A stretch of DNA of 14,759 nt from a virus. This document shows, in pieces, positions 1,640 through 14,601 of the stretch. The position numbers and the translations under genes are program-made. The DNA is taken from UHGV virus genome UHGV-0181014; one strand, written 5' to 3'. Each line of letters opens with the position of its first letter. The stretch's first letter is position 1. The notes below the pieces were generated by a model. It worked only from the letters and a program-made list of their open reading frames with translations. It was not told the origin of the DNA and ran no database searches.

Positions 1640-2818
1640 CTAACTAGCTTTAATTTCTCCATGAGGAACTACGACCCAATCGATATGATTTTGGGTATAG
1701 ATCTTTGTTGATTTCGCATCACTATGTGCCATTCGTCCTTGCGGATCGATACCCTGCTGATCGAAAAGATGCGCTGCCAGCGCTCTAATTTCATGAAAGG
1801 TTGGTCTTTCGTCCATCGATAGATGGTCGCATAAACCTAGCTTGTCACGCGTAGCTGAAAATGACCGACTCAAATAGTCCGGTGCAACTTGACTAGGGTG
1901 TGAAACCTCTTTGCTGCGTTTAATCTGCCGTTCAGGGATCCTGTGAACGACAAACGGACTGGCCACATTATCTCGGCTATCGTCTATTATCCGTTTCAAC
2001 TCTTCCCCAATCGGGATTGCAACGTGAGATGCCTCTTTTTTTTGCACTTTCTGCCTGTGGATGTAGAGAGTCCCATAAATACCGTTTTCTGGTTGCGCTA
2101 ACCATACGCACCCGCAGATACCGTCTTTTGGCTCTCTTATGGAGTAACGGATCCGTGAGACCTCCAATCGTGCGTGTGTTGTCTGCAATGCCAAATCCAT
2201 AGCGGTTCGTAACCATGGTTCGGCTGCGCGCCTGATGGCTTTAAAGTTATCAAGTGAAAGGCGCTGGCGCTTCTTCTCTTCTGTCCTACGCATTTTTTTA
2301 CGGGTTGCCGGGTTATCGAACATTAGTGATTCATCGACCGCATAGGAAAATAATTTTTTAAGAAAGCTGACTTTCCTGTTTTGTACGTTTGCTGATGCTT
2401 CGGCATGGTAGTGGTTTATATAGGCGTTCACATGCTCCAGCTCAATATCGCAAGCTGGTATGTTGATGAAGAATTCTTTTACCCTCAGAGCATCGTTGTT
2501 CCAATCGTCGAGTGTATTCTGTGAAGGGCGCTCATTCTCAATCGCCCGCTCCATAATATGATCTACGTGTTCAGCAAATGGTTTTGCTTCCCCAGTTACA
2601 CCGCCAGATTCACGGACAAGTATTTCTACTGAAGGTACATTTTCAGGTCTCATTCTTAGGTTGTATTCACGGGCTATAGCGATCGCTACAGCCCTGTCTT
2701 TACCAATATTCTTTTTTTTCCCAGTTATGAGCGTAAATTTATAAACGCCGCGATCTTTATCGAATATTAGATATTCGGGTAGATGGCGGTATTCTCTTTT
2801 TCTTGGCCTGGCTGCCAT
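1640..2818 (-). CDS. int: Lambda-family tyrosine integrase
   Basis: 392-aa ORF. N-terminus MAARPRKREYRHLPEYLIF...GKDRAVAIAIAREYN parallels lambda Int arm-binding N-terminus (MGRRRSHERRDLPPNLYIR...GRDRRIAITEA). C-terminus PTFHEIRALAAHLF...HSDAKSTKIYTQ parallels lambda Int PPTFHELRSLSARLY...HKSDTMASQY with the catalytic tyrosine. Lies next to the tRNA-derived att core and is preceded by xis. Confidence 0.9.
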   Translation of the reverse strand: MAARPRKREYRHLPEYLIFDKDRGVYKFTLITGKKKNIGKDRAVAIAIAREYNLRMRPENVPSVEILVRESGGVTGEAKPFAEHVDHIMERAIENERPSQNTLDDWNNDALRVKEFFINIPACDIELEHVNAYINHYHAEASANVQNRKVSFLKKLFSYAVDESLMFDNPATRKKMRRTEEKKRQRLSLDNFKAIRRAAEPWLRTAMDLALQTTHARLEVSRIRYSIREPKDGICGCVWLAQPENGIYGTLYIHRQKVQKKEASHVAIPIGEELKRIIDDSRDNVASPFVVHRIPERQIKRSKEVSHPSQVAPDYLSRSFSATRDKLGLCDHLSMDERPTFHEIRALAAHLFDQQGIDPQGRMAHSDAKSTKIYTQNHIDWVVVPHGEIKAS

Positions 2819-3119: not shown

Positions 3120-4358
3120 TTACTTTTTCATCACCTTTTCAGCAACACCAGCAATTGCCTCAAGTCCATCAAACATTGCTGGTATATTATTTTCATTGTT
3201 TTGTATTGGACTAAAAATAAGAGCATCAAAAGAGTCTAAAACTTTCTCAATAGCAATGTTATTTTTTCTTCTATATTCAACATACCCATCAATGAAAGCA
3301 CATAAGCTGAGCCTTAGATCAATCTGCATAAGTTGAGTTCTTAAAGCCTTCGCTTCTAAATATGAAAGTCTGAAAAAATAAATAATTGCCATCTCAATAG
3401 TAATAAATGGGAATAGAATGAAGATCGCTGAATAATCTTTAGGATATAAATCAGGGAAAGAAAAATGGATTATTACAGCAATCACAGGAGCAATGAATAC
3501 AGTCCCAAATAAATTTTTATAATTCATTTCAGTTGTAGAAAGCTCTTTCTCTTTTTTTTCTTTTATTATGTTAAAACCAGAGCTTAACCCAACAAAATTA
3601 TACTCTGATTTTAAATTTCTCACACGCTCCTCTAGTGCCTTAATTTCATCCCTTGATTCATCCACGTATTTTAAATTAGCATCTGCTTCTAGTTTTCCAT
3701 CTACAATAGCTTTTTTAATGTCATTATAATTATCAGATATTAATGATATGGATGCTTTAGTGTCTTTGTTAATTTTATCAATAGCCAAATCTAAGTTGCT
3801 AGAAATTTCATCGAGAAACTTCCGTTTGTTTTCGTCGAGGTCTGATATAAAGTTTCTAGCATCAGTTAGTTTGTTACTGTTTAGTAACCACTTCATAAGT
3901 GAAATAGGTAGTTTGTCTCGAATCCATGAAAATTGGTATTTACCTTCATTATCCTTGAAAGTGTTTTCTAATAATGTCAATTTGCTGTCTGTGATAAAGT
4001 TAGGCGTGATAATGGAACGAGTGCCTGTCCAATAATAGTACTCGTACAATACTCTTAACAAGGTTGACAAAAAATCAATCTTGTCTTTCTTGTAATCGTC
4101 AACTTGAAATTCCATGTGCAACAATATATTGTCTTGATTAAAACCTGTATTCTCATCTAAATGTTGTGGGTTGTTATTTATTATTGATATAAAAGTCGAC
4201 CATGCTGAGTCCAATGTAGTATAGAATAAAGATATGCTATTATCTTTCTTTTTGGCGGATTTCTTGGACATTTCTTCAAACCTAATAAGATCTCTACTAA
4301 TTATAGTATTTGTTTCCTTTATTGAATTAAGTATTTTATTATCGCTATATAGTCCCAT
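3120..4358 (-). CDS. Hypothetical AT-rich membrane-anchored protein (412 aa, two predicted C-terminal TM helices); candidate abortive-infection or superinfection-exclusion cargo gene
   Basis: Uninterrupted 412-codon ORF in a segment of roughly 30 percent GC, against ~50 percent or more in flanking phage genes. Hydrophobic stretches FGTVFIAPVIAVIIHFSF and AIFILFPFITIEMAIIYFF near the C-terminus; coiled-coil-like segment ESRDEIKALEERVRNLKSEY. AAAAAGG RBS before the ATG at 4358. No recognisable catalytic motif. Confidence 0.7.
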   Translation of the reverse strand: MGLYSDNKILNSIKETNTIISRDLIRFEEMSKKSAKKKDNSISLFYTTLDSAWSTFISIINNNPQHLDENTGFNQDNILLHMEFQVDDYKKDKIDFLSTLLRVLYEYYYWTGTRSIITPNFITDSKLTLLENTFKDNEGKYQFSWIRDKLPISLMKWLLNSNKLTDARNFISDLDENKRKFLDEISSNLDLAIDKINKDTKASISLISDNYNDIKKAIVDGKLEADANLKYVDESRDEIKALEERVRNLKSEYNFVGLSSGFNIIKEKKEKELSTTEMNYKNLFGTVFIAPVIAVIIHFSFPDLYPKDYSAIFILFPFITIEMAIIYFFRLSYLEAKALRTQLMQIDLRLSLCAFIDGYVEYRRKNNIAIEKVLDSFDALIFSPIQNNENNIPAMFDGLEAIAGVAEKVMKK

Positions 4359-4475: not shown

Positions 4476-5303
4476 TTATGGTTTAAATATTCCGATGAAA
4501 GTGTCCACTGATTCACCCTCGAACTTGCTGATCAGCAAATTGCGGAATTCGTTGGCGATCTCTTCTTCCTGGGCTTCAAGTTGGACGATGCGCAGAACAA
4601 AGCAGGGTTCATCGCTGGTCAGCAGGCTGTTACGCAAACTAAAGCGGCGTTCGCCCATACCTTCATACGGCACACATTTGAACTCGAACGCCACAGGCAT
4701 TACGTCTTTGCTGCTTGCTTCAACGCTTTGCATCAGGGATTTTTTACCAGCGAAATCACCAGTTTCATGGTCCTGCTGGGTTGCTTGCTGGATAGTGATA
4801 CGACGTACAGCCTGAGCTGCCTGGGAAATCTGCATCGTATTGCCATCAGCATCAAACGCCAGCAGGTAATCGCTCCAGTCTTCCAGCCATTCAGCGATTT
4901 GCTTTTGCTTCAGACGTTGACCGTCGATCTGCAGTAGCGCACGGAACGGGGCGGTTTTCTTTAGGGTGATTGAAGCAACGTTATCGGCGTGACCGGGATT
5001 ATCCAGGGTGCCGATGTTGAACACTGAACGAGCGGTCATGTTGTCAGCATCAATGAAGCAACGGGCTGGATCGCTGGCGCTGGCGTAACCTTTAGAATAA
5101 CGTGCGAAGTCGTCAATACTGGTTGTGGTCATTGCGCCACGGAAGCGGAAACGCTCCAGAGAAAAGCGCTCAAGGCTTTCAACGCCAGTACCTTCTGGCA
5201 ATAATGCGGTCGGGCAAGCCAGGTCCTGAATATCATTCAGGTGATAACCGGAAAGAACCAGGTCTTTGACCTGCTTGAAGGTACCGCTGTCTAACTGAGA
5301 CAT
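4476..5303 (-). CDS. Conserved prophage early-left protein, possibly YfdQ-like (DUF2303 family)
   Basis: 275-aa ORF with TAAGGAA RBS. Size and N-terminus (MSQLD...) match my recollection of E. coli CPS-53 YfdQ (274 aa); family assignment is from memory, not a search. Confidence 0.7.
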   Translation of the reverse strand: MSQLDSGTFKQVKDLVLSGYHLNDIQDLACPTALLPEGTGVESLERFSLERFRFRGAMTTTSIDDFARYSKGYASASDPARCFIDADNMTARSVFNIGTLDNPGHADNVASITLKKTAPFRALLQIDGQRLKQKQIAEWLEDWSDYLLAFDADGNTMQISQAAQAVRRITIQQATQQDHETGDFAGKKSLMQSVEASSKDVMPVAFEFKCVPYEGMGERRFSLRNSLLTSDEPCFVLRIVQLEAQEEEIANEFRNLLISKFEGESVDTFIGIFKP

Positions 5304-5359: not shown

Positions 5360-5731
5360 TCACTGAGCCGCTTTAAGCTTTCCATCCACCGCGCCAGTGA
5401 TCCCGAACAGCTGACCCTGATCTTCCTGCAGGATGGTGAGCTTCCCGCCTTTGTTGACCCACATCGGGGTTTCGGTTGTGTCCTCTTCGGATGCTTTACC
5501 ACGCGGTGTTGGGGTGCTGTAGTTCAGCTTGTGCTTGATCTTGACGCGCTTCTCTTCAACGGAATTACCCATGCGCTCAAAATCAAATGTGAGGACTACT
5601 TTGCCTTTGTTGCCGTTGTTCAGAACGCCAAGTGCGGTGGTATTAAGTGCTGCCGCGATTTTGTTCATGAACACGCCGGCATCCAGTTCGCCAAGAAAAT
5701 CTGGCACTACGGTCATGCGGTCATTACTCAT
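5360..5731 (-). CDS. Conserved small prophage protein (possibly YfdP-like), 124 aa
   Basis: Six-frame ORF 5360-5818 begins with TTG. The first ATG (5729-5731) has a strong GAGGG RBS 6 nt upstream, giving MSNDRMTVVPDFL.... It lies immediately upstream of, and co-oriented with, the YfdQ-like gene. Confidence 0.6.
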   Translation of the reverse strand: MSNDRMTVVPDFLGELDAGVFMNKIAAALNTTALGVLNNGNKGKVVLTFDFERMGNSVEEKRVKIKHKLNYSTPTPRGKASEEDTTETPMWVNKGGKLTILQEDQGQLFGITGAVDGKLKAAQ

Positions 5732-6236
5732 GGTTTTACCCTCGTTATGGCGGCTGCCACCGCCGAACTTTCTCCATACACAACAGAGAAGGGCACCTGC
5801 ATTTGTCGGCGACTGCAATCGCCATCCTCTTGCCCTGGTGGATTGGGTTATGAGCCCGTCGCCCGGTGATGCCCTTTTCTGTTGTGCCCTGAAAAAGGCT
5901 GGCGGTTACCGGACAAATGGGAAAACACCGGGCCGCCAGAACAGGGAGTTACTTGTTATTGCTTTGGCCTGCTTTTAACCACATCAGGCGCGGTGGTAGG
6001 TATCTTCGGGCGGGGTGCTAAGGGGGTGATTAGCCCTTGACCTTAACACTCCTGCTGGTTTTGGTATTCCTGGTTTGGGTATCGCCACCAGCTATAGGAA
6101 TTTGACTACGAGCTGCGGTTAATCAGGCCGCGCCTCTGTTACCCCTCCCGAAGACACCTGTCAGCGAATCATCCGGTTATTCATATGCCACCGGCGGCTA
6201 CTTCGTGGGCGTCCTGCCTGTTCGCTGTTGATGAAT

Positions 6237-6300
6237 AAAATCTAACTTAACTTAGCTTTTAGATCAAGAAAAAACACCAAACTATTCTTAGCTTGATGTT
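6237..6300 (-). promoter_or_regulatory. Putative oL/pL: operator repeats and leftward early promoter just downstream of the repressor gene
   Basis: CTAACTTAACTTAG (6243-6256) has the same CTAA-N6-TTAG form as CTAATCAAACTTAG in the cI-cro intergenic region. The 10-mer AATCTAACTT occurs here and, inverted, at 7002-7011. Minus-strand -35 TTGATC, 17-nt spacer, -10 TAGATT overlaps these repeats. Confidence 0.4.
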
Positions 6301-6321
6301 AAGAGGAAGGTTAGAGGTGGG

Positions 6322-6948
6322 TTAAAGCTCGTACTGAACGCCTTTGACAACGCCGATGATCAGGCAATTACCGTTAATTGAAATGTTTGGATAGCGTGGA
6401 TTTAAGGGAACTAAGAACTTTTGAGGCCCGTCGATGACAAGTTTTTTTACAGTAGCCTCGTTTGTCCCATCAAGCCTGGCTACGACTATCTTTCCATGAA
6501 GTGGCTCTGCATCTGGATCTACTATGACTGTTGCCCCTTCAGGGATTGTCGGGAGGCCATTAGGGTTTGTCATCGAATCACCTTTAACCTCCAATGCAAA
6601 GGAGCTATCCCCTATGCGGAGTGATGTCTCTATCCACTTATCTACTTCGCTGAAAACTTCTGCTGCTTTACATTCTGTAAACTGTCCAGCCTGAACCCAG
6701 GATATCACCGGAATCCTTCGCATCTTGGTTATCAGATTGCCTTCAAATTCAGTGCCATAAAGTATGTAATCAATTGATGTGTTGAAATACTTTGCAAGTT
6801 TCGCAAGTGACTCGCCTCCTGGCACATTAACGTCTTTTTCCCAATACCCAACCGCCACATCACTAACACCGCAGAACTTACCCAGTTCTTTCTGCGAGGT
6901 TTTGGTTATGCGCCTGAGAGCTTTGATGCGCTGACCGACAGTTTCCAT
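6322..6948 (-). CDS. CI-like prophage repressor (HTH_XRE N-terminal domain plus S24 LexA-like autopeptidase domain)
   Basis: 208-aa ORF. N-terminal HTH (QKELGKFCGVSDVAVGYWEKDVNVP), a probable Ala-Gly cleavage site (VQAGQF), and the S24 Ser/Lys dyad context (GDSM ... VKKL). Divergent from a Cro-like gene with operator palindromes between them. Confidence 0.85.
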   Translation of the reverse strand: METVGQRIKALRRITKTSQKELGKFCGVSDVAVGYWEKDVNVPGGESLAKLAKYFNTSIDYILYGTEFEGNLITKMRRIPVISWVQAGQFTECKAAEVFSEVDKWIETSLRIGDSSFALEVKGDSMTNPNGLPTIPEGATVIVDPDAEPLHGKIVVARLDGTNEATVKKLVIDGPQKFLVPLNPRYPNISINGNCLIIGVVKGVQYEL

Positions 6949-7050: not shown

Positions 7051-7278
7051 ATGACAACCGATGATATTGAAAACTACTTCGGCAGTACTGAGAAGGTTGC
7101 CGAATTTTTTGGAATCACAAGCGAGGCTGTTTACCAGTGGCGTAATAGAACTGGTCGCCTTATCCCAAAAGGGCGTGCAGCTGAAGCAGCATATCGAACC
7201 GGGGGGAAATTGGTTTTTCATCCCGACCTTTACGAAAAGCGTAGCGATGCTTCAGTAAAACTCAAACCACAGGAATAA
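7051..7278 (+). CDS. Cro-like small HTH regulator (Cro/YdaS-like)
   Basis: 75-aa ORF divergent from the repressor, strong AGGAGG RBS. Motif AEFFGITSEAVYQWRNRTGRLIP fits the Cro/YdaS-type HTH pattern. Confidence 0.75.
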   Translation: MTTDDIENYFGSTEKVAEFFGITSEAVYQWRNRTGRLIPKGRAAEAAYRTGGKLVFHPDLYEKRSDASVKLKPQE

Positions 7279-7288
7279 GGGGGGAGCT

Positions 7289-7840
7289 GTGGGTAACGAA
7301 CCTATTTGGAAAGTCGAACGTCAGCCAGCCTGGCTGGTGGCGGCGATAAAAAAAACGATCACCGATCTTCCTGGTGGTTATGCCGAGGCGGCGGAATGGT
7401 TGGGCGTGACAGAGAACGCATTGTTCAACCGCCTTCGTGTTGACGGCGACCAAATCTTCCCGCTGGGCTGGGCAATGGTTTTACAACGTGCTGGTGGTTC
7501 AACTCATATCGCTGATGCCGTTGCGCGCCATTCTCAGGGCGTATTTGTACCGCTGGCAGATGTTGATGATCTGGATAACGCCGATATCAACCAGCGCCTG
7601 ATGGAATCAATCGAATGGATAGGCCGTCATTCTAATTTTGTACGTAAAGCCACGGCTGATGGGGTGATTGACGCAGAGGAGCGCGCTCAGATTGAGGAAA
7701 ACAGCTATCAGGTGATCGCGAAGTTCCAGGAGCACGTAGCACTTCTTTATCGAGTTTTTTGTGTCGCTGAAAAGAGTGACGCCCGCGAGTGTGCAGCTCC
7801 GGGCGCCTTGGCGAACAACTCTTCGAGTATGGAGAAATAA
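7289..7840 (+). CDS. CII-like phage regulatory protein (183 aa)
   Basis: GTG-initiated ORF directly after the Cro-like gene, the canonical cII position. Sequence such as AAEWLGVTENALFNRLR and size are consistent with the phage CII/CP76-type regulator family as I recall it. Function by position plus weak motif recall. Confidence 0.55.
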   Translation: MGNEPIWKVERQPAWLVAAIKKTITDLPGGYAEAAEWLGVTENALFNRLRVDGDQIFPLGWAMVLQRAGGSTHIADAVARHSQGVFVPLADVDDLDNADINQRLMESIEWIGRHSNFVRKATADGVIDAEERAQIEENSYQVIAKFQEHVALLYRVFCVAEKSDARECAAPGALANNSSSMEK

Positions 7841-8012
7841 TCCGCATGAGCAGTTTAACGGCTTTTAACCGTCTACCGCAACTCAGGATGATCCCGGTTT
7901 CGGGTACTCCGTTGTTTCGGTATGAACGCAGATTATCAAACCGCTGGGTTCCGTGTAACCACAGTAGGGCGGTTTCAATTGTGGGGGTCTATAACCGGAG
8001 GGCAAAACGCCT

Positions 8013-8192
8013 GTGCGCGAACTTAACCGAAGGTTCAAAGACCACCGCGGAGTGTCTGTCCGTGTTATCCGCTGGGAGCCAGAAACACAGCGCGTTATCT
8101 ACCTGCGTGATGGCTACCCGCACGAATGCTTCAGCCCACTTGAGCATTTCAGGCAAAAGTTCAGGGAGATAACGGACGATCATGAGCACTAA
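8013..8192 (+). CDS. Putative small protein (59 aa, GTG start) overlapping the start of the replication gene
   Basis: Frame opens after TAA at 7992-7994. GTG at 8013 preceded by GGAGG (7996-8000, 12-nt spacing). The translation VRELNRRFKDHRGVSVRVIRWEPETQRVIYLRDGYPHECFSPLEHFRQKFREITDDHEH looks protein-like, whereas the overlapping 127-aa frame (7789-8172) is Ser/Ala/Thr/Arg-rich in this interval. It ends 10 nt into the next gene. Confidence 0.3.
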   Translation: MRELNRRFKDHRGVSVRVIRWEPETQRVIYLRDGYPHECFSPLEHFRQKFREITDDHEH

Positions 8193-9039
8193 ATTAACCG
8201 GCTACGTATGGGATGGTTGCGCGGCGTCGGGCATGAAGTTGTCTAGTGTCGCGATCATGGCGCGCCTTGCTGATTTCAGCAGCGATGAGGGGGTGTGCTG
8301 GCCGTCTATTGAAACTATCGCTCGCCAGCTTGGCGCAGGGACGAGCACTATCAGAACGGCAATCGCTAAGCTTGAAAAAGATGGCTGGCTCACGCGTACA
8401 CAGCGCCGTAATGGTAACCGTAATGCGTCGAACGTGTACCGCCTGAATGTGGCGAAACTTCAGGCTGCCGCATTTTCTCAACTGTCAGATTCTGACGCGT
8501 CAAAACCTGACGCATCAAATTTTGACACCTCAAAAACTGACCCGTCGAAATCTGGCAAAAACGGCGGTTTTGACCCGTCAGAATCTGGCGGGGATCCGTC
8601 AGTAAAATCAAAACAAGATCCACAAGTAACTTCAAAACCCTCTTGTCCGGTTGCGGCGCAACCAGACCCTGAAGTCGTGATTACTGACCAGGCAATTTTG
8701 GTTCTGACCCATTTGAACCAGATAAGCGGATCCCGGTATCAGAAATCAAAAACATCCCTGGAGAACATCCGTGCCCGACTGCGTGAGGGATACAGCGTTG
8801 CAGACCTGCAACTTGTTATCGACCTGAAGCATGAACACTGGCACGAGAACGACGAGCAGTACCAGTACATGCGCCCGGAAACGCTGTTCGGCCCGAAGAA
8901 ATTCGAGAGCTATCTGCAAAGCGCTACCCGCTGGGAGCAGAAGGGACGGCCTAAACGCGCTGACTGGGGAGCGAAAAAGCGCGATGTGATGGCTTTTGGT
9001 CCGGTTGAAACAACGATTCCAGAGGGGTTCAGAGGATGA
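8182..9039 (+). CDS. Replication initiator (O-like): N-terminal winged-helix/HTH domain, acidic Ser/Asp linker, conserved phage C-terminal domain
   Basis: 285-aa ORF. N-terminal LSSVAIMARLADFSSDEGVCWPSIETIARQLGAGTSTIRTAIAKLEKDGWL is a typical HTH replication-protein fold signature. The C-terminal ILVLTHLNQISGSRYQ...LVIDLKHEHWHENDEQYQYMRPETLFGPKKFESYL resembles the conserved phage C-terminal domain of replication proteins. Contains tandem iterons; the true start may be 8182 or the internal ATG at 8233. Confidence 0.75.
   Translation: MSTKLTGYVWDGCAASGMKLSSVAIMARLADFSSDEGVCWPSIETIARQLGAGTSTIRTAIAKLEKDGWLTRTQRRNGNRNASNVYRLNVAKLQAAAFSQLSDSDASKPDASNFDTSKTDPSKSGKNGGFDPSESGGDPSVKSKQDPQVTSKPSCPVAAQPDPEVVITDQAILVLTHLNQISGSRYQKSKTSLENIRARLREGYSVADLQLVIDLKHEHWHENDEQYQYMRPETLFGPKKFESYLQSATRWEQKGRPKRADWGAKKRDVMAFGPVETTIPEGFRG
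8478..8640. repeat. Origin-like iteron array inside the replication gene, followed by an A-rich tract
   Basis: Tandem 15-bp units: TGACGCGTCAAAACC (8493-8507), TGACGCATCAAATTT (8508-8522), TGACACCTCAAAAAC (8523-8537), TGACCCGTCGAAATC (8538-8552), TGACCCGTCAGAATC (8571-8585), plus degenerate copies at 8478-8492 and 8586-8600. TGACGCGTCA is itself palindromic. The array is followed by an A-rich stretch (8601-8640), analogous to ori-lambda within gene O. Confidence 0.6.
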
Positions 9040-9917
9040 CGTTAAACAAATATTGCCAGGCGCTGGCGGCACTGCGCAGCAAGCCAGCCCACGAACTGAA
9101 AGAGGTTGGCGATCAGTGGCGGACACCGGATCTGCTTTTTTGGGGTATCAACGCGCTATTTGGTCCATTAGTTCTGGACTTGTTTGCTGACGACGACAAC
9201 GCGAAGTGCCCGGCATGGTACACCGCCGAAGATAACGCGCTGACACAGAACTGGTCTGAACGTCTGGATGAACTGGGCGGCGCGGCTTTTGCCAATCCTC
9301 CATATAGCCGCTCCCAGTATCACGACAAGCAGGCGATCACGGGTATGACACACATCATGAATCACACCATGGACATGCGTGAAAGAGGTGGTCGCTATAT
9401 TTACCTGGTGAAGTCTGCCACAAGTGAAACATGGTGGCCGGAAGATGCCGATCACATCATGTTTATTCGTGGTCGTATTGGGTTCGATCTGCCTGTGTGG
9501 TTTGTACCTGCTGACGAAAAACAGAAACCCACCAGCGCGTTTTTTGCCGGTGCCATAGCTGTATTCGATAAGTCGTGGCGGGGTGAGCAGTTCAGCTATA
9601 TCAACCGCACAGAACTGGAGGAAAAAGGGCGGGCATTTATGGCTTTGGCTCAATTCGCCGTTGGTAAAGAGCAAACAATTGCAATGCAGGCAGCCAGGGA
9701 ACCAGCAGCAACACCGGAAACTGAGTCACGAATCTGGCCTCTCGAGGTTGGTCTGGTGTTTAACCAGGTGGAAGGCGTTGATGTATTGAGCGAGGCCCAG
9801 CAGAACAAACTGAAAGCCAACATCAATCAACTCTGGCTGGAACGAACGGCCACCAGCGAAATTATCACAATTGCGCGTGGTCTTGTTGGCAGCATGCAGG
9901 GGGCAACCCATGCGTGA
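9036..9917 (+). CDS. Phage-type DNA N6-adenine methyltransferase (Dam-like, orphan)
   Basis: 293-aa ORF with the catalytic NPPY motif (FANPPYS) and the N-terminal QWRTPDLLF...LVLDLFADDDNAKCPAWYT signature characteristic of phage N6-adenine methyltransferases. ATGA start/stop overlap with the replication gene. Confidence 0.85.
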   Translation: MTLNKYCQALAALRSKPAHELKEVGDQWRTPDLLFWGINALFGPLVLDLFADDDNAKCPAWYTAEDNALTQNWSERLDELGGAAFANPPYSRSQYHDKQAITGMTHIMNHTMDMRERGGRYIYLVKSATSETWWPEDADHIMFIRGRIGFDLPVWFVPADEKQKPTSAFFAGAIAVFDKSWRGEQFSYINRTELEEKGRAFMALAQFAVGKEQTIAMQAAREPAATPETESRIWPLEVGLVFNQVEGVDVLSEAQQNKLKANINQLWLERTATSEIITIARGLVGSMQGATHA

Positions 9918-12990: not shown

Positions 12991-13982
12991 GGGCTTTGTT
13001 AACTCCTGAAGTCGCCCATCGCATGGGGATTGTGTTATTTCGTCCCGGCGCGGAACTGATGCACCTCTTCATGCGCGGTCGCGTTCTTCTCGAACCTGAA
13101 CCAGAAGAAATGGCGTCATTCAGTACAGGGGCTGTTCCCGCAGCCATTCAGCCGCTGGCTGATGATCCTGTAATGCGGCAGGTATTCGAGAATGAACGGG
13201 TTATTCAGCGTGCCGGCGGGATTTCTTCCCTTGAGCAATGGCTGAGTTCTCGGTTTGAATGCCAGTGGCCACATTCAACGTGGCACGACAAGAACTTCAC
13301 AACAATGCGGCACCCACCAGGAAGCATTCGCCTGTGCTGGCATTGCGATCACACTTTGTCGGGGCAGCATACCGAACAGCTTGCAGGTATAGCGGCCGGA
13401 AACCTGGTATCCTGGATTCTGGAAGTCATTCGGCGTGATTCTGGTTTTCCCGAGTCGCATATCCTGACGCTTCCGGAACTGTGCTGGTGGATGGTCAGAA
13501 ACGACCTGGCTGATGTTATTCCGGAAAGCGTTGCGCACAAAGGGCTGCGCCTTCCGGATGAGAAGATCCGCTCTGTCATGAGGGAAAGCGACATAGTGCC
13601 TTCCTCGTCAGCAACCAGACTCGTGCAGGAGAAGGCGAAGAAGATCCTCACGCTCTCTGTTGATCCTGAGTCGCCAGAGTCTTTTATGCTCAGGCCAAAA
13701 CGTCGCCGCTGGATAAATGAGACGTACACCCGCTGGGTTAAAACACAACCCTGTGAGTGTTGCCGACGGCCAGCAGATGATCCGCACCATATCGTAGGGC
13801 ACGGTATGGGGGGGACAGCAACAAAAGCCCATGACCTCTTCGTGATCCCTCTGTGCAGAGAGTGCCACGACGAGTTACACGCCGATGTACCAGCATTCGA
13901 GCAGAGGCATGGTACGCAGCTTGAGTTGCTACTGCGTTTTATGGATCGGGCGCTGGCGATCGGCGTAATTGCGAAAGCTTAA
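12987..13982 (+). CDS. DUF968/YdfU-like nin-region protein with C-terminal HNH-like Cys/His motif
   Basis: 331-aa ORF with GTG start overlapping the preceding stop (GTGA). C-terminal CECCRRPADDPHHIVGHGMGG...CRECHDELH is a zinc-binding HNH-like arrangement. Position and size match prophage YdfU-type proteins as I recall them. Confidence 0.65.
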   Translation: MRALLTPEVAHRMGIVLFRPGAELMHLFMRGRVLLEPEPEEMASFSTGAVPAAIQPLADDPVMRQVFENERVIQRAGGISSLEQWLSSRFECQWPHSTWHDKNFTTMRHPPGSIRLCWHCDHTLSGQHTEQLAGIAAGNLVSWILEVIRRDSGFPESHILTLPELCWWMVRNDLADVIPESVAHKGLRLPDEKIRSVMRESDIVPSSSATRLVQEKAKKILTLSVDPESPESFMLRPKRRRWINETYTRWVKTQPCECCRRPADDPHHIVGHGMGGTATKAHDLFVIPLCRECHDELHADVPAFEQRHGTQLELLLRFMDRALAIGVIAKA

Positions 13983-14001
13983 GCGTATGGAGAAGAACAG
14001 G

Positions 14002-14601
14002 ATGACACCACATCAACGCCGCAATCATTTTGAAGCACTGGGTAAAGCAGCATCTGCTCCGCGTAAAAGCTGGCTGGGTAAAAGCATTCTTCTGACGGGG
14101 ATCCAATCCGGATGGATTAAATCCCTGCTCACCACATGGGGCGAGGGTGTGGGAGGAAAAACTGCACCCCGTATGCCGCGGGGCCACGCCTGCTGGAATG
14201 TACTAAGAGGTCGTAACTGGTCAGATAAGGCACTGGACCGCTTCACTGCTGCGTTGAATCAGGCACGAGAAGAGGGATTCCGTGGACAGCAGGCAATGAA
14301 CAGGGCACATAGTATTCTGTGGCCGCAGTCACCTGCCAGTGTGATTGATGAAGCCCTGCATAATGATGATGTCGATTTTGTTGAGCAATGCGTGCTACAG
14401 GCACTGGATATAAACGATCCTGTTTATGTTGTTGGTCTTCAGTATTACACCACTCGAAAAAAAATCTCAGACATCACCCGGGAACTGCAGGTAATCGCGC
14501 CATGGCTGACTGATGGGGAGGCAAGAAAGCGCGTGCGCTGGTGCCTGGAAATATTCAGAGCGAAGACCTTTTTGGCAGCACGAAAACAGTTATCTGAATA
14601 A
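14002..14601 (+). CDS. Putative late-gene antiterminator (Q-like), assigned mainly by position
   Basis: ORF 13969-14601 begins with TTG. The ATG at 14002 has GGAG 9 nt upstream. It sits after the nin-like genes and immediately before a candidate late promoter. I do not recognise a lambda-Q zinc finger, so the assignment is positional and tentative. Confidence 0.4.
   Translation: MTPHQRRNHFEALGKAASAPRKSWLGKSILLTGIQSGWIKSLLTTWGEGVGGKTAPRMPRGHACWNVLRGRNWSDKALDRFTAALNQAREEGFRGQQAMNRAHSILWPQSPASVIDEALHNDDVDFVEQCVLQALDINDPVYVVGLQYYTTRKKISDITRELQVIAPWLTDGEARKRVRWCLEIFRAKTFLAARKQLSE

Follow-up and report, generated by a model that had tools for sequence, protein, structure and literature searches.

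A patchwork of structured RNA modules, headed by a conserved three-way junction, ahead of the early-left genes of an N-less lambdoid prophage

Gene content of the locus and of the gap

The window, by which is meant the whole 14,759-nucleotide stretch of DNA analysed here (virus genome UHGV-0181014), covers a lambdoid prophage's immunity and early region. All 17 of its substantial open reading frames (ORFs) were scanned against PHROG, which assigns integrase, YfdQ/YfdP-like, cI, cro, cII-like, O-like (replication) and Q-like proteins; methyltransferases, RusA and Ant are identified as well. The principal genes are as follows (PHROG scan unless otherwise stated; for the YfdQ-like and YfdP-like genes, also RefSeq and LLS annotations of homologues):

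1640-2818, minus strand, integrase
3120-4358, minus strand, low-G+C gene of unknown function
4476-5303, minus strand, YfdQ-like gene
5360-5731, minus strand, YfdP-like gene (123 aa, phrog_204), the first early-left gene
5743-5739 and 5731-5729, minus strand, Shine-Dalgarno sequence GAGGG and ATG start codon of the YfdP-like gene (read from the sequence)
6322-6948, minus strand, cI/LexA-type repressor
7051-7278, plus strand, cro
7289-7840, plus strand, cII-like gene
13969-14601, plus strand, Q-like antiterminator

The 412-residue product of the gene at 3120-4358, which lies between the YfdQ-like gene and xis/int and has ~30% G+C against a window mean of ~50%, matches phrog_9373 (unknown function) and has no PADLOC match; the gene looks like a moron inserted into the early-left operon. 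Near the integrase end, a plus-strand gene (370-1479, 369 aa) matches HEC-08 (PADLOC; a candidate anti-phage defence family) and DUF3644, with E = 9e-167.

Between the cI-type repressor and the YfdP-like gene lies a gap in which the ORF listing contains only four minus-strand ORFs (5732-6236), of 24-34 aa:

5825, minus strand, ATG start, 26 aa
5802, minus strand, ATG start, 24 aa
5928, minus strand, GTG start, 26 aa
6088, minus strand, GTG start, 34 aa

None of these has a PHROG match, and the 26-codon frame at 5825 is exactly the one given as the longest ATG-initiated frame by the first-pass annotation, which had seen no convincing ORF at 5735-6236. Its description of the gap as GC-rich is likewise borne out by a G+C content of 55%, against ~42-48% in the adjoining immunity region, and its report of a missing N-like antiterminator gene agrees with the PHROG scan, in which none of the 17 substantial ORFs gives an N-like match. 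In related E. coli prophages the corresponding gaps, of 958 and 627 bp, are free of CDS annotation in RefSeq, and so is that of phage LLS (628 bp) in its curated genome. The plus-strand ORFs, which had been set aside as spurious, give weak and short PHROG matches only, the best of which (26 bits over 38 residues) falls exactly on domain E described below. Comparison of 42 homologues reveals no conserved protein-coding gene at this position: every frame, sense or antisense, is closed in at least one of them, and three (two sense, one antisense) are each open in only 30-35 of the 42.

The gap and its borders contain instead the following signals and RNA modules:

6273-6300, minus strand, terminator-like hairpin followed by a U run, just past the cI stop codon (terminator scan)
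6267-6262 and 6244-6239, minus strand, putative pL, with −35 TTGATC, a 17-nt spacer and −10 TAGATT (read from the sequence)
6242-6255, operator-like palindrome CTAACTTAACTTAG overlapping pL; a palindrome of the same kind lies at pR
6227-6162, minus strand, module A, three-way junction RNA of ~66 nt (covariance model and covariation)
6158-5999, minus strand, module B, long-stem domain (MFE and centroid folds)
5997-5967, minus strand, module C, ACCACCGCGCCUGAUGUGGUUAAAAGCAGGC (ACCACCGAGCCUGAAGUGGUGAAAAGACAGGC), possible H-type pseudoknot (sequence inference)
5939-5892, minus strand, module D, predicted intrinsic terminator (hairpin of −18 kcal/mol)
5886-5778, minus strand, module E, branched RNA beginning directly after the U run of D (RNAalifold, 22 homologues)
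5764-5749, minus strand, module F, GGCGG/CCGCC hairpin before the Shine-Dalgarno sequence (read from the sequence)
4465-4437, minus strand, second terminator-like signal, just past the YfdQ-like gene (−12.6 kcal/mol)

The pL candidate scores 8/12 against the consensus, the cut-off of the scan tool being 9/12. mEp460, LLS and many viral contigs have the same −10 element and operator, and this conservation among relatives, together with the fit to TTGATC-17 nt-TAGATT, upholds the leftward promoter that had been proposed here. Transcription is predicted to start near A6232. The hairpin at 6273-6300 would insulate the pL leader from the repressor transcript, and SfV has an annotated terminator at the matching position.

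When folded as minus-strand RNA, the segment 6232-5720 (513 nt) has a minimum free energy of −193.6 kcal/mol, compared with −168.7 ± 6.8 kcal/mol for shuffled sequences (z = −3.7). Covariation-based structure prediction across homologues, a check suggested together with the idea of a long structured leader, shows compensatory changes in three separate modules, A, D and E, and both results speak for such a leader. Comparison with relatives further shows that the leader is a patchwork of blocks, A to F, each of which is found elsewhere in differing combinations. The best explanation of 5732-6232 is that here the early-left (pL) operon of a lambdoid prophage with no N has its untranslated 5′ leader, built from reusable structured RNA modules.

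A conserved three-way junction at the start of the leader

Module A begins ~5 nt past the predicted start site and comprises three helices arranged around a junction:

6227-6221 with 6168-6162, minus strand, helix P1
6218-6216 with 6210-6208, minus strand, helix P2, with a loop containing GGA
6194-6190 with 6177-6173, minus strand, helix P3

The sequence of the module includes the segments CACGAAGUAGC, an invariant junction, and GGCAUAUGAA. Invariance extends to the P3 loop GGCRUAYGAA and to the junction AUGA; eleven or more unpaired nucleotides are constant, and the GGA of the P2 loop is retained despite changes in loop length (AGGAC, AUGGA, AAGGAAA). The helices, by comparison, covary. In an alignment of 54 distinct sequences (A2), 90.0% of the cells pair, compared with 22-42% when the partners are slid; compensatory changes occur in 12 of the 15 pairs, and the covariation score is 0.565 versus 0.145, a value of 0.565 being reached by none of 500 shuffles. 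A larger alignment of 93 distinct sequences (A4), which was fitted to the model of A and is biased towards its structure, gives 89.4% paired cells, a covariation score of 0.563 and compensatory changes in 11 of 15 pairs; the pattern that fetched its loci excluded the P1 strands and left the 5′ strand of P3 unspecified, and the slid controls across both alignments pair in 22-43% of cells. RNAalifold independently recovers the same three helices unaided. The covariance model, built from the viral set, finds exactly one strong match in 99 of 100 genome loci and matches the window at 6232-6157 with 94.8 bits. Module A is a real RNA structure.

Rfam 15 yields no match in the whole window at gathering thresholds, and a search of 5600-6400 with E up to 10 returns nothing overlapping module A (6162-6232); five chance-level matches (E 1.1-9) fall at 6268-6304 and within 5731-5983. 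Resemblances of the junctions to the hammerhead, K-turn, loop-E and SRP domain IV motifs, drawn by eye (18 of 26 nt for SRP domain IV), are contradicted by the variable P2 loop and the covarying P3. No description of A was found in the literature on put-like RNAs, ST64B sRNAs, prophage RNA motifs and mEp phages, in which an earlier mention is still possible; the Pas sRNAs and the nut sites of mEp021 are distinct from it. The leader is a familiar kind of object; what appears new is the RNA fold with which it starts. The first-pass annotation had also considered a small RNA gene in the gap, and a separately terminated small RNA is unlikely since no terminator follows module A.

A megablast search of the gap against phage genomes shows that only ~70 nt at the very start of the presumed transcript are conserved, with 85-97% identity. 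Carriers of A include ST64B, SfII, SfIV, SfV, mEp237, mEp460, SPN3UB, SEN34, Klebsiella phages and T5-like Providencia phages, as well as ZF40 (Pectobacterium), YeP1-3 (Yersinia), AH07 (Pantoea) and pAEv1818 (Aeromonas); the matching phage records are very diverse and have no annotation at A. In total, ~200 distinct copies were collected from Enterobacterales prophages, an Aeromonas phage and T5-like Providencia phages. A scan of IMG/VR with the invariant 14-mer GCCCACGAAGTAGC returns ~99 true instances, and a stricter pattern locates A in ~110 bacterial species, nearly all of them Enterobacterales; genomes of Xenorhabdus and Photorhabdus have several copies each. Of 5426 complete E. coli genomes, 1383 carry the module (Nissle 1917, UTI89 and O157:H7 are among them), and none annotates it. 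Whatever its role, A is a new RNA family for annotation pipelines, and it marks the start of early-left operons in prophages.

In temperate phages a cI-type repressor gene on the same strand ends 100-150 nt before A, as measured from its stop codon, and a promoter directly precedes the module. In the T5-like Providencia phage PR1, the pre-early genes come after A, which is part of the terminal repeat. Upstream of A, 140 of 196 contexts have a sigma-70 promoter with a score of 8/12 or more, and over the 196 contexts the distance from the −10 element to P1 peaks at 14-17 nt, which places the beginning of P1 at ~+5 to +9. There is one copy per locus (99 genome loci) and one in the window, where no second copy is found anywhere, the right operon included. 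The genes located 3′ of A form 112 unrelated clusters, which argues that A is self-contained and that its constant partner must be a host component. A second conserved motif, module d (CGCGCAGCAGGU...AACGUUCCGCCAGCCUGGCGA; for example at ~2565-2615 of mEp237, L241), occurs within 120 nt after A in 52 of 200 contexts and before A in 3.

The three-way junction, the invariant junction and loop nucleotides and the covarying helices give A the usual look of an aptamer or protein site. It is conceivable, if unlikely, that A is a sensor or a binding site, riboswitch-like or for a protein, which sets the level of the early-left message by a host signal and has no processive effect on terminators. The retention of GGA in the P2 loop fits recognition by a protein or another RNA; a CsrA-type GGA-binding protein is one suggestion for what might recognise it. 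Against a sensor, there is no conserved expression platform, a gene start, boxA, module d or modules B-C following A in different phages, and no Rfam riboswitch matches A even at E = 10. As a transcriptional riboswitch A was rejected, there being no conserved expression platform, a sequence past A that differs completely between contexts, and, in the window, a distance to module D of >220 nt.

The presence of A both in temperate lambdoid phages and in the pre-early, first-injected region of virulent T5-like phages would also fit an early RNA decoy or sponge, possibly a mimic of the tRNA elbow that would sequester a host factor or a nuclease of anti-phage defence. Loose tRNA-like traits can be recognized in the 7-bp P1, the 2-nt linker, the 3-bp P2 with its GG loop and the P3 loop UAYGAA, which resembles a T-loop. 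Such a decoy is nevertheless improbable: ARAGORN reports zero tRNA or tmRNA genes in the whole window and the Rfam tRNA and tmRNA models have no match in it either, four nucleotides separate P3 from P1, unlike the T-stem/acceptor stack of tRNA, the module has no CCA end, and its release from the mRNA would have to be assumed.

Downstream modules and terminators

Module B is closed by a predicted stem of GGUGUCUUCGGGAGGGGU (6158-6141) with CACCCCGCCCGAAGAUACC (6017-5999), which encloses branched hairpins. It is present only in six of the loci compared (L031, L099, L051, L022, L160 and L074), with 93-97% identity, and has no match in 5426 complete E. coli genomes, so that it is not a common repeat; its structure is predicted only, the divergent copies being too few for a covariation test. 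B takes the place of the short variable hairpin that precedes C in other phages and is a giant version of that hairpin.

Module C, in contrast to B, recurs in ~60 distinct contexts, nearly invariant and usually behind a variable hairpin. It may fold as an H-type pseudoknot through pairing of ACCAC (5997-5993) with GUGGU (5982-5978) and of GCCUG (5989-5985) with CAGGC (5971-5967); because C is nearly invariant, this fold is read from the sequence and lies beyond the reach of covariation. Early genes, kil-like ones among them, often have the module 10-20 nt 5′ of their ribosome-binding sites, and it stands at the 5′ end of the leaders of LLS, L001 and L002.

Module D consists of the hairpin CUGGCGGCCCGG...CCGGUAACCGCCAG (5939-5899), followed by CC and by UUUUU (5896-5892). 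In 22 aligned homologues, its stem sequence varies with compensatory changes in four stem pairs, and a run of five to seven U is constant. With a G+C-rich hairpin and a U run kept across homologues, D has the features expected of an intrinsic terminator. The second terminator-like signal, past the YfdQ-like gene, is formed by the hairpin UCCCCUUCCUUAGAAAGGGUGGGGA (4465-4441) and UUUU (4440-4437), which brings the predicted sense-strand terminators between pL and xis/int to at least two. Across carriers of A, terminator-like signals 3′ of the module are no commoner in the sense orientation (91 of 149 loci) than in antisense (113 of 149), as counted with an improved detector, the first detector having missed even D. 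Some variants of D (L031, L238, L163, L181 and ST64B, L006) carry in the hairpin loop a GGAGG followed after 7-9 nt by AUG or GUG UUC UGC, an insert that the D of the window does not have. In these variants, an upstream ORF could start inside the terminator and be translated through its 3′ arm.

Module E has an outer helix of ~19 bp, formed by CACAACAGAAAAGGGCA with UGCCCUUCUCUGUUGUG, and inner parts that comprise a CCGGG/CCNGG helix, a GGG/CCC hairpin with the loop CUCAUAA and a variable hairpin. RNAalifold analysis of the 22 homologues yields 38 pairs, 10 of which show compensatory changes, and G-U pairs occur on the minus strand only (for example, columns 108-185 are U-G in 22 of 22). E is found 5′ of several unrelated genes. 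Module F covaries too, its stem becoming GACC/GGUC or other pairs in homologues in which the hairpin is kept.

The D/E boundary is also where the near-identical viral contig L031 carries ~670 extra bases (its positions 7677-8350, at window ~5880), in which no convincing sense-strand ORF is found; the exact placement of this insert marks the junction as a recombination point. Phage LLS (L244, 2225-2810, minus strand) has two tandem units of a terminator and a structured domain, D-E-like and then D′-E, and no A. The leaders of L001 and L002 are built like that of LLS.

The D-E segment bears most directly on the proposal that the gap encodes one or more micro-proteins, either in a frame ...YRPFY.TEKSITGRRAHNPIHPG... 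running over D-E or in the 24-codon ORF that ends in ATGA at the start of the YfdP-like gene. ORFs of 74-82 codons exist in the D-E frame in L031, L099 and SfV-like loci, and the D variants with GGAGG, 7-9 nt and AUG in the hairpin loop could provide a start. Yet the D-E frame of the window has no start codon before the 26-codon ATG at 5825. In L213, L160 and L161 a TGA interrupts the frame, and the substitutions that create it are compensated in the RNA helix; at other sites, paired substitutions alter amino acids, and the lengths of the D-E core vary among homologues by non-multiples of three. Added to frames that stay open in 30-35 of 42 homologues only and to small ORFs devoid of PHROG matches, these observations make a micro-protein gene, which the first-pass annotation had raised as one option, highly improbable. 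The conservation of the gap is explained by RNA structure rather than by coding.

The lambda N leader and sib are under RNase III control. Module E resembles these elements in forming a long near-perfect helix by a terminator, 5′ of the first ribosome-binding site, and in that it would form fully only in read-through transcripts; it differs from them in having no sequence similarity, and any cleavage of E is putative. E is plausibly an RNase III or stability site. One reading extends this to the whole leader, such that A would be a 5′-end stabiliser or processing element, E an RNase III site, and the leader would mainly control mRNA decay and translation. The RNase III precedents of lambda, the invariable location of A at the extreme 5′ end and the wealth of long helices (B and E are each closed by an outer stem of ~18-19 bp) are in its favour. 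The reading is rather unlikely: a plain 5′ hairpin would suffice for such a task and leaves the eleven or more invariant unpaired nucleotides unexplained, and the ~5-9 unpaired nucleotides that precede P1 are a poor guard against 5′-end-dependent decay.

Module A and a possible role in the control of elongation

boxA is the NusB/NusE site in rrn and lambda antitermination. A canonical boxA (GCUCUUUAACAA) follows module A in 39 of 195 contexts, compared with 0 of 195 in antisense. Most of these 39 sites lie 1-57 nt 3′ of A with a mode of 28-29 nt, and they are usually preceded by a small hairpin, AAGCGCCC-NNNN-GGACGCUU, in the hairpin-then-boxA order of rrn leaders. Examples are L019, L030, L003 and Providencia phage PR1 (L008, ~2065-2080), in which boxA starts 7 nt past A. 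The leader of the window has no boxA (consensus (C/U)GCUCUUUAACAA), and the sole match in the window, with one mismatch (9661-9672, minus strand), lies outside the leader and is at chance level. The adjacency of boxA, together with the conserved terminators in the operon, ties A to elongation control.

The single most likely role of module A, put forward tentatively, is a cis effect on the elongation complex. Transcription would start near 6232 and yield module A as its first product, which would act in cis on the very polymerase that made it, either by itself or together with host elongation factors. This polymerase would then read through D, with its U run at 5896-5892, and through the terminator at ~4440 after the yfdQ-like gene, so that pL transcripts could reach yfdP/yfdQ and subsequently xis and int; E would form only in such read-through transcripts. 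In favour of this cis effect are the structure of A, its promoter-proximal position, the boxA adjacency, the conserved D, the second terminator and the lack of N. The counter-evidence comprises the dissimilarity of A to put, its single copy, the existence of LLS without A, the ~5% of loci with an N-like protein, the lack of enrichment of sense terminators and the absence of boxA from the window. The sensor or protein-binding site, the stabiliser or processing element and the early decoy RNA rank after the cis effect.

The nearest precedent for such an effect is the put RNA of HK022 and HK639, which suppresses termination and pausing via the β′ zinc-binding domain. Like put, A is structured, measures ~70 nt, opens the predicted pL transcript of a lambdoid phage that has no N, is autonomous of downstream sequence and lies upstream of terminators. 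Its position is also that of put, with P1 ~5 nt after the predicted start and HK022 putL starting at +1 to +3. For the comparison, HK022 putL was taken from the genome, with its numbering checked against the cryo-EM paper (PMC9378689), and HK639 putL from the record annotation. The differences are substantial. The blocks shared by the two putL sequences (CGAACGGCGCG, AAACCAUGCGUCGG, UCAGGAnGAnCGGCAAU) are absent from the leader of the window; the HK022 and HK639 RNAs fold into a V of two adjacent stem-loops, with a triplex in stem I, and A into a closed three-way junction made of a closing helix and two hairpins; A has no −10-like NANNAT at +23 to +28; and it is a single copy with no putR equivalent in the right operon. 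Moreover, the covariance model of A (R1) has no match at the HK022 or HK639 put site. These differences in sequence blocks, topology, copy number and model match rule out that A is a put RNA. Of the HK022-type put-like RNA envisaged in the first-pass annotation, what stands is a conserved cis RNA directly after pL, in the place of putL; its identity with put does not.

Two of the observations that weigh against the cis effect come from other phages. The same pL, C, D and E occur with no A in the viable phage LLS and in two E. coli prophages, which indicates that A is dispensable for expressing the early-left operon. In favour of the effect, the authors of a 2025 paper on LLS (PMC12315714), a phage that has no N and whose left operon is homologous to that studied here, suggest an RNA-mediated, put-like early antitermination. 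The second contrary observation is that ~5% of A-bearing loci also encode an N-like protein, a coexistence which argues that A is no simple replacement of N.

The same loci raise the converse possibility that A is a nut-type site for a phage-encoded N-like antiterminator. The boxA that follows A in 20% of contexts would fit such a site, as would the phrog_271 N-like genes downstream of A in a few Xenorhabdus/Photorhabdus-type loci. As in lambda nut and rrn leaders, A is promoter-proximal and, in other phages, can be followed by a hairpin and a perfect boxA. It is very unlikely, however, that A serves an N-like protein. The window has neither an N-like gene nor a boxA, the genes downstream of A fall into 112 unrelated clusters, and the P2 loop is no GNRA-like pentaloop. 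A is also far larger and more conserved than boxB: boxB and N change together from one specificity to another, whereas A is almost invariant across phages and shows no such dependence.

A cis effect exerted with host factors also has a parallel outside phages in the leader RNAs of processive antitermination, such as EAR, the eps-associated RNA of Bacillus, a structured leader RNA of a long operon for which a terminator-resistant polymerase has been proposed with no dedicated phage protein. A and EAR are unrelated in sequence, fold, host clade and genetic context, and no Rfam match connects them.

Many lambdoid phages of Escherichia, Shigella and Salmonella (SfV, ST64B, LLS) have no N, and how terminators are passed in their early operons is the question addressed here, for which the present leader supplies candidates in a covarying, uncatalogued RNA at the 5′ end of the pL transcript, a conserved terminator and a second structured domain. 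Should A act on RNA polymerase, the phage RNAs known to do so would number just two kinds, and A would be far more widespread than put, occurring in ~25% of complete E. coli genomes, in many Enterobacterales genera and in T5-like phages. A broader proposition, possible and more doubtful than the cis effect itself, is that A belongs to a previously undescribed class of phage RNAs with a conserved host machine as their target, either polymerase or Nus factors, in which case A would be an antiterminator unrelated to put, or a tRNA-handling or defence protein. This RNA would be the first transcribed from the early operons of both lambdoid and T5-like phages and would have been overlooked as pL is silent in lysogens.

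The record of HK639 (L010) contains an additional RNA annotation in its right operon, an ‘M3-like RNA’ at 7911-7970 after the cII-like gene, which is unrelated to modules A-F; the name refers to the M3 RNA of phi80, a substrate of RNase P.
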